Assembly (NCBI RefSeq): GCF_024298765.1
Contig: NZ_CP101210.1
Strand: one strand, 5' to 3'
DNA length: 64,000 nucleotides
Source: Escherichia coli
GTDB lineage: Bacteria > Pseudomonadota > Gammaproteobacteria > Enterobacterales > Enterobacteriaceae
Of the stretch, positions 5,397-21,562 are shown piece by piece. Under the pieces are notes generated by a model that saw only the letters and a list, made by a program, of their open reading frames with translations, had not been told where the DNA came from and made no database searches. The translations under genes were made by a program, and so were the position numbers. The stretch's first letter is position 1; every line of letters begins with the position of its first letter.

Positions 5397-6338
5397 TTAA
5401 GCCGGTTTTGTTAGCCCAAAAAATTCGCGGGCGGTTAATTCATCACGCGCAATCTGCGCTTTCAGTTCGTCCAGCGATGCAAATCGCTGCTCATTGCGTA
5501 TTTTTTTACGCAGCACTACTTGTATATGGCGACCATAAAGGTCCATTGCAACATCTAACAAATGCACTTCCAGTTGCTGGCGAATACCGGCAACCGTTGG
5601 GCGTGTTCCGATGTTTGCAACGCCGGGTAACGGCTTTTCGCCAAGGCCCAACACTTCTACCGCATAAACCCCTTTCACCGGGGAAACCTGACGGCGTAGC
5701 GGTACATTCGCCGTCGGGAAACCTATAGTGCGCCCTAATTCATCACCGTGGACTACACGCCCGGAGATAGCAAACGGGTGCCCCAGTAAACTTTCTGCCA
5801 GAGCCAGATTGTCATCCGCAAGCGCCTGACGCACGGCGGTGCTGCTGATACGCACGCCACCTTCGCAAAAAGTTTGCGTGCTGGTGATATCGAAGCCGTA
5901 TTCCATGCCCGCTTTCTGTAATAACAAGAAATCGCCTTCACGACCAGCGCCAAAGCGGAAATCGTCACCTACGGCAAGAAATTTTACCCGCAAGTGCTTC
6001 ACCAGAAGATCACTGATGAAGTTTTGCGCGGTTAACGCCGCAAAACGCCTGTCAAAACGCACGCACAGCACGTAATCAACACCACACTCTGCAAGATAAC
6101 GCAGTTTTTCCCGCAGCCGGGTGAGCCGTGCCGGGGCTTTATCAGTAGCAAACAGTTCCAGTGGTTGAGGTTCAAAAAGCATCACCATCACCGGTAAGTT
6201 GCGCTTGCGCCCTTCTTCCTGCAAGCCCTGTAACAGCGCGCGATGACCGCGATGCACGCCGTCGAAATTACCAATAGTCAGCACACACCCTTCTTGCGGG
6301 GCCTGGCTGAGATTATGTATGCCGCGTATCAGCTTCAT
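5397..6338 (-). CDS. ribF: bifunctional riboflavin kinase / FMN adenylyltransferase
   Basis: 313 aa ORF MKLIRGIHNLSQAPQEGCVLTIGNFDGVHRGH... Confidence 0.95.
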   Translation of the reverse strand: MKLIRGIHNLSQAPQEGCVLTIGNFDGVHRGHRALLQGLQEEGRKRNLPVMVMLFEPQPLELFATDKAPARLTRLREKLRYLAECGVDYVLCVRFDRRFAALTAQNFISDLLVKHLRVKFLAVGDDFRFGAGREGDFLLLQKAGMEYGFDITSTQTFCEGGVRISSTAVRQALADDNLALAESLLGHPFAISGRVVHGDELGRTIGFPTANVPLRRQVSPVKGVYAVEVLGLGEKPLPGVANIGTRPTVAGIRQQLEVHLLDVAMDLYGRHIQVVLRKKIRNEQRFASLDELKAQIARDELTAREFFGLTKPA

Positions 6339-17336: not shown

Positions 17337-18767
17337 ATGCCAGATTTTTTCTCCTTTATTAACAGCGTCCTTTGGGGATCGGTAATGATTTACCTGCTCT
17401 TCGGCGCAGGTTGTTGGTTCACTTTTCGTACCGGATTTGTGCAGTTTCGCTACATCCGCCAGTTTGGCAAAAGTCTTAAAAATAGCATTCATCCACAGCC
17501 AGGCGGTTTAACCTCATTTCAGTCATTGTGTACCAGTCTTGCGGCGCGCGTGGGTAGCGGCAACCTGGCTGGCGTTGCGCTGGCTATTACCGCCGGTGGA
17601 CCAGGTGCCGTCTTCTGGATGTGGGTTGCCGCGTTTATCGGCATGGCGACCTCGTTTGCCGAATGTTCCCTTGCACAACTTTATAAAGAACGTGACGTTA
17701 ATGGGCAGTTTCGTGGCGGACCGGCATGGTATATGGCGCGCGGGCTGGGGATGCGCTGGATGGGCGTTCTGTTCGCCCTCTTTTTGCTCATCGCCTACGG
17801 CATAATTTTCAGCGGAGTTCAGGCGAACGCCGTTGCCCGAGCCCTGAGTTTTTCTTTTGATTTTCCCCCGCTGGTGACAGGCATTATTCTTGCTGTCTTT
17901 GCTCTGCTGGCAATCACTCGCGGTCTTTATGGCGTCGCCCGGCTCATGCAGGGGTTTGTCCCGTTGATGGCGATAATCTGGGTACTGACCAGCCTGGTAA
18001 TTTGCGTAATGAATATCGGGCAACTTCCCCACGTCATTTGGTCTATTTTTGAGAGTGCTTTTGGCTGGCAGGAAGCGGCAGGCGGCGCGGCGGGATATAC
18101 CTTAAGCCAGGCGATTACTAACGGTTTTCAGCGCAGTATGTTTTCCAATGAGGCGGGAATGGGGTCGACGCCAAACGCGGCAGCGGCAGCTGCGTCCTGG
18201 CCTCCGCATCCCGCAGCGCAAGGGATTGTCCAGATGATTGGCATTTTTATCGACACCCTGGTCATCTGTACGGCAAGCGCCATGCTGATATTACTGGCGG
18301 GTAACGGCACAACCTACATGCCGCTGGAAGGTATTCAGCTTATCCAGAAGGCGATGCGGGTGCTAATGGGCTCCTGGGGTGCGGAGTTTGTTACCCTCGT
18401 GGTTATTCTGTTTGCCTTCAGCTCCATCGTTGCCAACTACATTTATGCCGAAAACAATCTCTTCTTCTTACGCCTGAACAACCCTAAAGCGATCTGGTGT
18501 CTGCGAATCTGCACCTTCGCAACGGTCATCGGCGGCACCTTGCTAAGTCTTCCGCTGATGTGGCAACTGGCAGATATCATAATGGCCTGCATGGCTATTA
18601 CCAATTTGACCGCCATTTTACTGCTCTCGCCTGTGGTTCATACCATTGCCAGTGATTATCTACGCCAGCGTAAACTCGGCGTGCGCCCGGTGTTTGATCC
18701 GTTGCGTTATCCGGATATCAGTCGCCAGCTTTCTCCGGACGCGTGGGATGATGTTTCGCAGGAGTAA
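17337..18767 (+). CDS. yaaJ: alanine/glycine:cation symporter family transporter YaaJ
   Basis: 476 aa polytopic membrane protein MPDFFSFINSVLWGSVMIYLLFGAG... Confidence 0.9.
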   Translation: MPDFFSFINSVLWGSVMIYLLFGAGCWFTFRTGFVQFRYIRQFGKSLKNSIHPQPGGLTSFQSLCTSLAARVGSGNLAGVALAITAGGPGAVFWMWVAAFIGMATSFAECSLAQLYKERDVNGQFRGGPAWYMARGLGMRWMGVLFALFLLIAYGIIFSGVQANAVARALSFSFDFPPLVTGIILAVFALLAITRGLYGVARLMQGFVPLMAIIWVLTSLVICVMNIGQLPHVIWSIFESAFGWQEAAGGAAGYTLSQAITNGFQRSMFSNEAGMGSTPNAAAAAASWPPHPAAQGIVQMIGIFIDTLVICTASAMLILLAGNGTTYMPLEGIQLIQKAMRVLMGSWGAEFVTLVVILFAFSSIVANYIYAENNLFFLRLNNPKAIWCLRICTFATVIGGTLLSLPLMWQLADIIMACMAITNLTAILLLSPVVHTIASDYLRQRKLGVRPVFDPLRYPDISRQLSPDAWDDVSQE

Positions 18768-18836: not shown

Positions 18837-19613
18837 ATGCTGATTCTTATTTCACCTGCGAAAACGCTCGATTACCAAAGCCCGTTGCCCACCACGCGCT
18901 ATACGCTGCCGGAGCTGTTAGACAATTCCCAGCAGTTGATCCATGAAGCGCGGAAACTGACGCCTCCGCAGATTAGCACGCTGATGCGCATCAGCGACAA
19001 ACTGGCGGGTATCAACGCCGCTCGCTTTCATGACTGGCAGCCAGATTTCACGCCAGAGAATGCCCGACAAGCGATTCTGGCATTTAAAGGTGATGTCTAT
19101 ACTGGCTTGCAGGCCGAAACCTTCAGCGAAGACGATTTCGATTTTGCCCAACAGCATTTGCGAATGCTTTCCGGCTTGTATGGCGTACTGCGCCCGCTCG
19201 ATTTAATGCAGCCTTATCGTCTGGAAATGGGGATCCGTCTTGAGAATGCCCGAGGGAAAGATCTGTATCAATTCTGGGGAGATATCATCACCAACAAGCT
19301 GAACGAGGCGCTCGCAGCACAAGGCGATAATGTGGTGATTAATCTGGCGTCAGATGAGTATTTTAAATCGGTGAAGCCGAAGAAATTGAATGCCGAGATT
19401 ATCAAGCCGGTGTTCCTCGATGAGAAGAACGGCAAATTTAAGATCATCAGCTTCTACGCTAAGAAAGCACGCGGTCTGATGAGTCGTTTCATTATTGAAA
19501 ATCGGCTGACCAAACCAGAGCAACTGACTGGTTTTAATAGCGAAGGTTACTTCTTTGATGAAGCTTCCTCCAGCAACGGCGAACTGGTGTTTAAACGCTA
19601 CGAGCAGCGTTAA
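18837..19613 (+). CDS. yaaA: peroxide stress resistance protein YaaA (DUF328)
   Basis: 258 aa [28 protein letters not shown]... Confidence 0.92.
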
Positions 19614-19625
19614 GTTTGTAGCCAA

Positions 19626-19760
19626 TGCCGGATGCGGCGTGAACGCCTTATCCGGCCTACAAAAGCATGCAGATTCAATATATTGCAGAATTAACGTAGG
19701 CCTGATAAGACGCGCCAGCGTCGCATCAGGCGCTGAATGCCGGATTGTTACCCGGCATTT
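19626..19760. repeat. REP elements in inverted orientation (BIME-like) between yaaA and yaaX
   Basis: gccggatgcggcgtgaacgccttatccggcctac and the inverted copy gtaggcctgataagacgcgccagcgtcgcatcaggc. Confidence 0.8.
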
Positions 19761-19765
19761 GTCAT

Positions 19766-20062
19766 TTAGCGGTGATGTTTGCCTGGACCATGACCGCCGT
19801 GATGATCATGAGGAGCTTTCTTATGGTGGCGCGGCGGTGGCGGCGGTCCGTGTGGGTGCCAGCGATTGCCTCGCCATTCATAATGTTGTTTCCACCAGCC
19901 GTGGTCGCGCCAGTGACCGCCATCCCAGTAATAGCCACGATTATCACGATCGCCTATCTGTAATTTTACTGACGGGACTAGCGTAATTTCCGCAGCCTGC
20001 GCTGCCATGGGAGCGACCAGAACCAGGGAAAGTGCGAGTACGATAGATTGCATCTTTTTCAC
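19766..20062 (-). CDS. yaaX: DUF2502 family secreted protein YaaX with His/Pro/Gly-rich C-terminal tail
   Basis: 98 aa [23 protein letters not shown] (signal peptide) ... [30 protein letters not shown]. Confidence 0.85.
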
Positions 20063-20275
20063 AGGTTACTCCTTTTATCATTGCCCGTTATGGGTCGATA
20101 TCCGGAGATTACGCGATGAGAACGGCAGTTGTTATTCTCCGCAATCCTAATCTCTAAGTTACCGCATTTATTGAGAATTTCTCCTTTTTCCCTGTCGTTT
20201 TTCTCCATATTTTCTTCATAAAAAAGCCGGGCTGCATAAAAGCAAACCCGGCCTGATTGAGATAATGAATAGACG

Positions 20276-21562
20276 TTACTGATGATTCATCATCAATTTA
20301 CGCAACGCAGCAAAATCGGCGGGCAGGTTATGCGAAAGCAAGGGTAAATCAGCACGTTCTGCCAGCTCTTTTGGCAGATCCAACGTTTCACCGAGAATCG
20401 CTTCCACGCTCTCTTTAAATTTCGCCGGATGCGCGGTGCCGAGGAACAAGCCATATTCGCCTGGATTCAACTGGTCACGCAGCGCACGATAAGCTACGGC
20501 AGCGTGCGGCTCCGAGGTATAGCCCAGTTCTTTTAACTCACGCATTGTCTGTTGCGTGGTTTCATCATCCACGGCTGCATACCCCAGCTCTTTCAGTTGC
20601 CAGATTTTGCGGCGGAACAACTCTTCCACACGCGGCCAGTTGTTTGGCTGGCTAACATCCATCGCATTGGATAACGTCGCCTGAGTCGCTTTGGGTGACC
20701 ACTGACCGTCGTGCAGGAAACGTGGCACGGTATCGTTCACGTTGGTCGCAGCAATAAAACGTTTCACCGGCAGACCGAGTGACTTCGCCAGCAGACCCGC
20801 CGTCAAATCGCCGAAGTTTCCGCTTGGCACCGAGACAACCAGCTGGTTGCGCGCTTCCTGCGGCAGCTGCGCAACAGCTTCAAAGTAGTAGCAAATCTGC
20901 GCCAGCAAACGGCTGATGTTAATCGAGTTAGCTGAGTTTAGCCCCAGCGCCACTTTCAGTTCTTCATCATCAAACGCCTGCTTCACCAGCGCCTGACAGG
21001 CATCGAAATCGCCGTCGATGGCAACAGTTTCAATATTGCCGCCCAATGTACAGAACAGTTTTTCTTGCAGTGGACTGATTTTGCCTCGTGGATAGAGGAT
21101 AACCACTTTCACATTCGGCAAACCGTAGAAAGCATGAGCCACTGCCGCTCCGGTATCACCGGAGGTCGCGGTCAGAATGGTCACTGGCTTATCGCCCGCA
21201 ATATGGGTCAGCATTTGTGCCATAAAGCGACCGCCGAAATCTTTAAATGCCAGCGTTGGCCCGTGAAACAACTCCAGACAACCGACATCGCTTTCAACAT
21301 TGGCGACCGGAGCCGGGAAGGCAAACGCCGCGCGTACGCGCTCTTCCAGGATTTCCTGCGGGATTTCATCACCAATAAACGCCGAGAGGATCTTCGCACT
21401 GCGGGTGACAAAATCCAGCTTCAGCATCTCATCAATTTCAGTCAGGCTGAATTCCGGCAGGTCGTGCGGGAAAAACAGCCCCTGATTTTTGCCCAACCCC
21501 TGGGTTACGGCTTGCGCAAAGCTGACCTGCTCATTGTGATCTTTCAGATTGTAGAGTTTCAT
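20276..21562 (-). CDS. thrC: threonine synthase
   Basis: 428 aa MKLYNLKDHNEQVSFAQAVTQGLGKNQGLFFPHDLPEF... Confidence 0.97.
   Translation of the reverse strand: MKLYNLKDHNEQVSFAQAVTQGLGKNQGLFFPHDLPEFSLTEIDEMLKLDFVTRSAKILSAFIGDEIPQEILEERVRAAFAFPAPVANVESDVGCLELFHGPTLAFKDFGGRFMAQMLTHIAGDKPVTILTATSGDTGAAVAHAFYGLPNVKVVILYPRGKISPLQEKLFCTLGGNIETVAIDGDFDACQALVKQAFDDEELKVALGLNSANSINISRLLAQICYYFEAVAQLPQEARNQLVVSVPSGNFGDLTAGLLAKSLGLPVKRFIAATNVNDTVPRFLHDGQWSPKATQATLSNAMDVSQPNNWPRVEELFRRKIWQLKELGYAAVDDETTQQTMRELKELGYTSEPHAAVAYRALRDQLNPGEYGLFLGTAHPAKFKESVEAILGETLDLPKELAERADLPLLSHNLPADFAALRKLMMNHQ

Follow-up and report, generated by a model that had tools for sequence, protein, structure and literature searches.

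A predicted secreted DUF2502 protein of Escherichia coli, YaaX, joins a conserved Trp/Arg core to a variable, histidine-rich C-terminal tail

Small secreted proteins with an odd amino acid composition invite guesses about their function, and the question is how far composition can carry such a guess. The gene yaaX, the fifth of the E. coli K-12 map, raises this question in the stretch of E. coli DNA analyzed here (64,000 nucleotides, hereafter the window). The original prediction, made from the letters of the DNA, described a secreted protein of 98 amino acids ending in a His/Pro/Gly-rich low-complexity tail, and suggested metal binding (Ni, Zn, or Cu) or a periplasmic chaperone-like role. The feature is real, and the metal hypothesis is a reasonable and unoriginal one.

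RESULTS

yaaX is a conserved gene between thrC and yaaA

The open reading frame listing and its translation give a 98-amino-acid frame with a GTG start on the minus strand of the window (Table 1). Its translation equals the strings that had been quoted for the Trp/Arg/Gly-rich segment and the tail, and the gene is indeed yaaX, as claimed. The window holds the E. coli thr region in reversed orientation. Both the window ORFs and the E. coli annotation place yaaX between thrC and yaaA, with yaaX and yaaA convergent, and the order thrABC-yaaX-yaaA-yaaJ is common to Enterobacter, Citrobacter, Yokenella, and Salmonella. By its position between thrC and yaaA and its convergence with yaaA, the gene is a member of the yaaX orthologue group. 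A 681-nt segment around it is 100% identical at the DNA level to several E. coli chromosomes, where it is annotated as "yaaX: DUF2502 domain-containing protein," and the gene was found in 5,414 to 5,425 of 5,426 complete E. coli genomes. This is a known, annotated gene, yaaX (b0005).

TABLE 1 Positions of yaaX, its parts, and the neighboring features in the window
Feature	Position	Strand	Basis
yaaJ	17337-18767	+	window gene order
yaaA	18837-19613	+	window gene order
REP/BIME elements	19592-19757	.	spacer of convergent yaaX/yaaA; Rfam matches
Antisense ORF, 72 aa, spurious	19745-19963	+	codon-aligned antisense frame of yaaX
yaaX coding sequence	19766-20062	-	98 codons plus TAA stop (19766-19768), GTG start; Pfam DUF2502, annotation
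C-terminal tail, predicted disordered, His/Pro/Gly-rich (codons 69-98)	19769-19858	-	composition, pLDDT
Penta-proline run CCG CCG CCA CCG CCG (codons 73-77)	19832-19846	-	codon reading
DUF2502 core (codons 24-68)	19859-19993	-	family-defining motif, near-invariant
Predicted signal peptide (codons 1-23)	19994-20062	-	KK n-region, hydrophobic h-region, predicted cleavage AQA/AE
Shine-Dalgarno AGGAG	20069-20073	-	6 nt before GTG start
63-nt upstream block	20131-20193	-	nearly invariant in E. coli, Salmonella, Citrobacter, Enterobacter, Yokenella
thr operon terminator hairpin	20220-20253	-	GCCGGG...CCCGGC then T-run; parts thrC from yaaX
thrC	20276-21562	-	window gene order

With a score of 52 bits (E = 8.4e-14), the protein exceeds the gathering score of the Pfam family DUF2502 (PF10697), which is 27 bits, and its residues 25 to 73 match positions 1 to 61 of the 90-position profile. 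No other Pfam family matched YaaX at E ≤ 1. The GTG start is supported by the Shine-Dalgarno sequence AGGAG 6 nt upstream together with the ATG start codons found at the same alignment position in Salmonella, Citrobacter, Enterobacter, and Yokenella. The longer string AAGGAGT is kept in four of the five aligned genera, Yokenella having GAGGGCGT in its place.

Three further overlapping frames are also open, as might be expected if the ORF were not a real gene and its odd composition were a translation artifact of GC-rich DNA. We regard this as vanishingly improbable: synteny and conservation extend across genera, the core is under strong purifying selection, the protein matches a Pfam family, several studies report induction of the transcript, and the alternative-frame ORFs are accounted for by the amino acid sequence of YaaX. 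The pattern of conservation refutes the idea that yaaX is a non-gene. As to the overlapping ORF on the plus strand, it runs until the antisense of the Leu34 codon TTA closes it, and it stays open up to that point because residues 35 to 98 include no Leu or Ser, and thus no TTA, CTA, or TCA codons. Tandem Repeats Finder (minimum score, 30) reported no tandem repeats in 19600-20200, and synonymous-codon resampling of YaaX reproduced the open lengths in all five alternative frames. A codon-aligned antisense ORF of equal length is present in 60% of ordinary 99-codon gene slices. The overlapping ORFs had been called spurious, which stands, and had been put down to repeat-like codon runs, which does not: there is no tandem repeat, amino acid composition suffices, and the length is ordinary. 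The Tandem Repeats Finder null and the codon resampling together rule out DNA repeats as their cause.

YaaX consists of a signal peptide, a conserved core, and a tail

The protein falls into three parts, namely, a signal peptide (residues 1 to 23), a core rich in Trp, Arg, Asp, and Gly (about residues 24 to 68), and a tail predicted to be disordered (residues 69 to 98). The first part looks like a classical Sec-type signal peptide, with cleavage predicted from the sequence pattern. The A-x-A cleavage pattern is conserved in an alignment of 24 orthologues and, with the n-region, h-region, and cleavage site of Table 1, is consistent with the prediction that the protein is secreted. AlphaFold2 placed a low-confidence helix over residues 5 to 20.

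The core is the most conserved part of the family. YaaX has the signal peptide followed by the core motif G-D-R-D-x-x-G-x-Y-W-D-G-x-x-W-R-D-x-x-W-W, which is seen in 77 of 99 family representatives. When 24 Enterobacteriaceae orthologues are aligned, 22 columns are invariant, among them W46, D47, G48, W51, R52, W57, Y61, W63, R64, and W68. Six tryptophans in a 45-residue core would be rare by chance (P = 2e-5). In the full-length AlphaFold2 run, residues 31 to 70 reached pLDDT values of 86 to 93; when the core was modeled in isolation, the mean was 89. Taken over both runs, the core spans pLDDT 86 to 96. The core model showed no resemblance to any solved structure.

Ten of the 30 tail residues are histidine (33%), and proline and glycine make up a further 27% and 17%. 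Against the background histidine frequency of 2.1%, taken from the 28 long ORFs of the window, the probability of at least 10 His in 30 residues is 3.4e-10, and 0 of 11,829 background segments of 30 residues exceeded 4 His. The tail is therefore a strongly non-random His/Pro/Gly-rich low-complexity region, as had been described. AlphaFold2 gave mean pLDDT values of 66, 49, and 48 for residues 71 to 80, 81 to 90, and 91 to 98, respectively, on which basis the tail is predicted to be disordered. The tail of the window type carries a net charge of +4, with Lys and Arg present and a single acidic residue (Asp). For mature YaaX, the calculated net charge is about +5 at pH 7.5 and climbs to about +15 at pH 5.5. 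The PPPPP run occurs in Escherichia/Shigella-type tails only.

The tail varies between genera and has two haplotypes in E. coli

The tail does not align between genera but stays rich in His: its histidine fraction ranges from 0.16 to 0.41 (mean, 0.28) over all 24 orthologues. Its length in these orthologues is 25 to 43 amino acids, and its end, PG(P)(D)xKHH(R), is semi-conserved among them. Tails outside Escherichia are rich in His, Asp, and Arg, and next to these the window tail stands out as Pro/Gly/Lys-rich, with only one Asp.

Within E. coli, yaaX occurs with two mutually exclusive tail haplotypes (74% versus 26% of genomes). The window carries the K-12-type tail, found in 4,034 genomes, and the other haplotype, which reads ...PPPSPRHNKHNDHRGDHRPGPDKHHR, was found in 1,393. 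Two compensating 6-nt indels separate them, so that both proteins are 98 amino acids long, and their 28 aligned tail codons show about 10 nonsynonymous differences. A rough hand alignment gives a tail pN/pS of about 0.5. Codons 1 to 68 show 0 nonsynonymous and 2 synonymous differences in the same comparison. When the window was compared with strain A26, 28 differences, along with the two 6-nt indels, fell inside the roughly 80 nt of 19772-19852, against a background of 0 to 11 differences per 250 nt, and the adjoining 650 bp (19853-20500) were identical. Strains with the other tail haplotype are missing a 113-nt BIME segment (19635-19749).

Window-like tails are also found in the more distant Escherichia-like proteins P0008 and P0012, and the tails of E. 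marmotae resemble the other E. coli allele. The occurrence of similar alleles in other Escherichia lineages indicates that the tail dimorphism is either old or introgressed. Gene conversion from a second genomic copy was considered as a source of the window-type tail and rejected: at megablast sensitivity, each genome has a single copy of the 93-nt tail DNA, so that E. coli offers no close donor of its own. This localized dimorphism is only a mildly surprising by-product.

DUF2502 is a small family with diverse tails

Of 1.84 billion representative proteins, only 104 matched a profile of the core. Those with source names came from Enterobacterales (Brenneria, Rouxiella, Serratia, and Chimaeribacter) and from one gammaproteobacterial MAG; DUF2502 is almost confined to Enterobacterales. 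Ten diverse relatives of YaaX matched nothing but DUF2502 in Pfam at E ≤ 1. Proteins of the family carry one or two copies of the core motif, and behind these comes a low-complexity, hydrophilic tail. In the 48 representatives whose tails are clean, the histidine fraction has a median of 0.12; it is at least 10% in 28, against the background of 2.1%, and less than 10% in 20. Tails rich in Gly/Gln or in Lys/Thr also occur, and the proteins of one subclass have CPPGQAKKGxC at their end. Many members outside Enterobacteriaceae have two core copies or the CPPGQAKKGxC end, unlike YaaX.

Ile/Thr/Met/Ala-rich C-termini are present in 24 of 72 motif-bearing DUF2502 representatives (P0009-P0011, P0019, P0125-P0137, P0163-P0172, and others), and they have the look of His/Asp-rich tail DNA translated after a frameshift. 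NCBI assemblies with long contigs are the source of some of these representatives. The frameshifted forms may be assembly errors or real pseudogenes. Relatives of the Yersiniaceae type (for example, P0190, P0207, P0188, and P0175) have a tail of repeated PPP(x)RWH or GPPPxRW units that echo the core-tail junction of the E. coli protein, and more than one separate lineage has poly-proline immediately behind the core. In the MAG (GCA_016218365.1, locus L005, 2834-6375), a two-repeat DUF2502 gene whose product ends in CPPGQAKKGRC lies behind three unannotated same-strand genes. Its distance to a BufA1/MbnB/HvfC/DoxX operon, which comes with an ECF sigma/anti-sigma pair, is about 3 kb. Being a single instance, this context was given no weight.

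E. coli has a second member of the family, YpeC (b2390). Like YaaX, it has a signal peptide, a DUF2502 core with the EITL(V/L) string, and a hydrophilic Gly/His/Arg-rich C-terminal end, DDHRGKGRGHGHRH (...GRGHGHRH). It differs from YaaX in its longer Trp/Tyr/Arg/Lys/Glu-rich linker, in having no poly-proline run, and in being additionally a MarA/SoxS target. The gene adjoins mntH; the two are convergent, so their adjacency is synteny and not an operon. The Rouxiella homologue shows the same ypeC-type synteny with mntH, and the neighbors of the Brenneria DUF2502 locus are unrelated.

A conserved block upstream of yaaX is a candidate promoter region

Downstream of the thr terminator lies a 63-nt block that is better conserved than the yaaX tail (Table 1). 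To judge by this conservation, the block is probably a regulated promoter or operator of yaaX, and it fits an autonomous regulated promoter. A sigma-70 consensus scan found no match on the yaaX strand. The consensus of the RcsB box is TNRGANNNNTCYNA. No match to it with one mismatch or fewer was found in 20063-20275, the consensus being loose and the window matches falling below shuffled expectation, and by eye the best candidate in the 63-nt block has 2 to 3 mismatches to this loose consensus. Given that no RcsB-box consensus was found upstream, Rcs control of yaaX may be indirect.

Just 5' of the Shine-Dalgarno sequence, a (G)CCC-N4/5-GGG(C) hairpin (20084-20094, minus strand) keeps its position in all five genera. 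It probably lies in the 5' UTR of yaaX, and its sequence is conserved with little covariation. Farther upstream, the arm CCCGGCTTTTTT of the thr terminator is conserved in Citrobacter and Enterobacter. The terminator scan missed this hairpin because its loop is longer than the limit of the scan.

At its 3' end yaaX is without a canonical intrinsic terminator, having a GCCGG-N8-CCGGC hairpin with no T-run that is followed by REPs. The Rfam family ES036 (CssrF) matched 19661-19703 with 38.7 bits against a gathering score of 37.6, naRNA4 gave two sub-threshold matches in the yaaA-yaaX spacer, and the Rfam scan of the yaaX flanks returned REP-related families only. The genomic context was rejected as a clue to function, the thr operon, yaaA, and yaaJ being unrelated to yaaX and set apart from it by terminators or convergent orientation.

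Published expression data place yaaX among envelope stress genes

No paper in the searchable literature assigns a function to yaaX, which agrees with the earlier statement that the function is uncharacterized, and none links the gene to a metal regulator. For both reasons, metal binding is only plausible. The gene is listed in the RcsB regulon with a 1.9-fold change (PMC2731931), and colicin M induces it in a study that groups it with Rcs targets (PMC3599342). An inhibitor of LolCDE raised yaaX 8- to 12-fold and ypeC 42- to 60-fold, in a study that annotates yaaX as "RpoS stress induced" (PMC5105897), and the promoter of the Serratia homologue serves as an Rcs reporter (PMC8470065). Both yaaX and ypeC are induced by Rcs-activating stress, and ypeC is a direct target of MarA/SoxS (PMC5684230, PMC10268841). 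The sole metal-related mention of yaaX that we found concerns cusS mutants in LB, in which it is differentially expressed along with zraP and cus genes (PMC10920338). A review refers to a "proline-related pause in yaaX" detected by nascent-chain and ribosome profiling (PMC13410324).

DISCUSSION

The explanation that we favor, tentatively and with somewhat less than even confidence, is that YaaX acts in envelope-stress protection modulated by pH or metal rather than in dedicated metal homeostasis, with the core as the working module and the tail as an appendage selected for its composition. The three-part architecture, the pattern of conservation, and the published regulation support a periplasmic envelope-stress protein whose core is conserved and whose tail, predicted to be disordered, keeps its composition while its sequence varies freely. 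On this account, yaaX encodes a small, probably Sec-exported protein of the DUF2502 family, belongs to the Rcs (reportedly also RpoS) envelope-stress response, and would be transcribed from a conserved control region of its own that follows the thr terminator. The core would be the working module and would bind some envelope component. The His-rich tail, selected for composition and not for sequence, may serve as a titratable segment that binds cations or protons, and it would probably modulate whatever the core binds. Chemistry predicts that a segment with 10 His in 30 residues would almost certainly bind Zn, Ni, or Cu in vitro. Two points speak against our explanation. A highly variable tail with two alleles and with frameshifted forms in the databases may be weakly constrained, and the RcsB-box consensus was not found in the region upstream (20063-20275).

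A dedicated periplasmic buffer or metallochaperone for Zn, Ni, or Cu, with the tail as a functional metal-binding site, would account directly for a tail that is one-third histidine and for orthologue tails that are all His-rich, usually His/Asp-rich, a composition like that of the ZnuA His/Asp loop and the ZraP Gly/His motifs. It would also fit the differential expression that yaaX shares with zraP and cus genes when cusS is mutated (PMC10920338), the gammaproteobacterial MAG in which a DUF2502 gene lies near the BufA1/MbnB/HvfC/DoxX operon, and the position of ypeC next to mntH. We nevertheless consider this rather unlikely. The regulation reported for yaaX is all that of envelope or general stress, not of Zur, ZraR, CusR, CueR, NikR, or RcnR; ypeC and mntH are convergent and thus syntenic without forming an operon; and the MAG context is a single case. 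Moreover, His makes up less than 10% in 20 of the 48 clean tails of the family, some being Gln/Gly- or Lys/Thr-rich, the E. coli tail has a net charge of +4 and one acidic residue, and the conservation of the family sits in the Trp/Arg core and not in the tail. The failure of the tail to align between genera, its predicted disorder, the many database variants frameshifted within it, and the two 6-nt indels and about 10 nonsynonymous differences per 28 codons that separate the E. coli alleles there, as opposed to none in the core, might suggest that the tail has no specific function and is a tolerated low-complexity extension drifting under weak constraint, with only the core of importance. We hold such drift to be unlikely: histidine is 8 to 20 times above background in 24 of 24 orthologues, the length is bounded at 25 to 43 amino acids with both E. 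coli alleles at exactly 98 residues through compensating indels, the PGPxKHH(R) end is semi-conserved and resembled by the end of YpeC, and the tail pN/pS from the rough hand alignment is about 0.5, not ≥1.

The tail could also matter at the level of translation. The PPPPP run at codons 73 to 77 contains at least three consecutive prolines, as EF-P-dependent stalling sequences do, and a proline-related pause in yaaX is reported from two methods (review PMC13410324). PPP(P) also stands just after the core in the distant relatives P0175, P0188, P0207, P0178, and P0150. The PPPPP of YaaX fits poly-proline stalling sequences, given the run itself and the reported pause, with EF-P dependence putative. 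That such a pause regulates the synthesis or export of YaaX seems very improbable, however, as the run is missing from most genera, PPPSP stands in its place in the second E. coli haplotype (26% of genomes), and yaaX is monocistronic and convergent with yaaA, leaving no downstream gene placed for regulation. A more ambitious form of our own explanation, in which the tail is a selected pH/metal switch on a new Trp/Arg fold that binds an envelope polymer and the dimorphism arose from balancing or diversifying selection and not from drift or a chance import by recombination, strikes us as quite improbable.

Other systems offer analogies to such a role. In ZraP, Gly/His-rich motifs at the termini bind Zn, and Zn raises the chaperone activity of the protein. 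YaaX may be loosely like ZraP, which is its nearest functional analogy. The LTXXQ proteins ZraP, Spy, and CpxP share with YaaX their small size, signal peptide, induction by envelope stress, and periplasmic location, and spy is coinduced with yaaX (PMC3599342, PMC5105897, PMC2731931). YaaX is not homologous to them, however, as it has no LTXXQ motif and its predicted fold is not a helical hairpin. The NCBIfam Spy model scored 11.9 bits against a cutoff of 174 and covered residues 1 to 28 only, the signal peptide, and the NCBIfam matches of YaaX were discarded as signal-peptide noise.

His-rich disordered segments that bind metal include the His/Asp loop of ZnuA, the N-terminus of ZinT, the tails of SlyD and HypB, the GHHPH repeats of vertebrate histidine-rich glycoprotein, and the prion octarepeat PHGGGWGQ. 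A His/Pro segment that works as a pH/Zn switch of polyanion binding has a precedent in histidine-rich glycoprotein. The YaaX tail resembles all these segments in having dense His in a disordered region, often with Asp, Gly, or Pro. The likeness is one of composition alone, with no sequence homology, and the YaaX tail is unusually basic, with Lys and Arg and one Asp.

Together with ypeC, yaaX belongs to the small periplasmic proteins that are induced when Rcs fires, most of which are uncharacterized. If the tail proves to be pH- or metal-responsive on a new envelope-binding fold, a small gap in enterobacterial envelope protection would be filled, and a pH/metal switch would be the first function for DUF2502.
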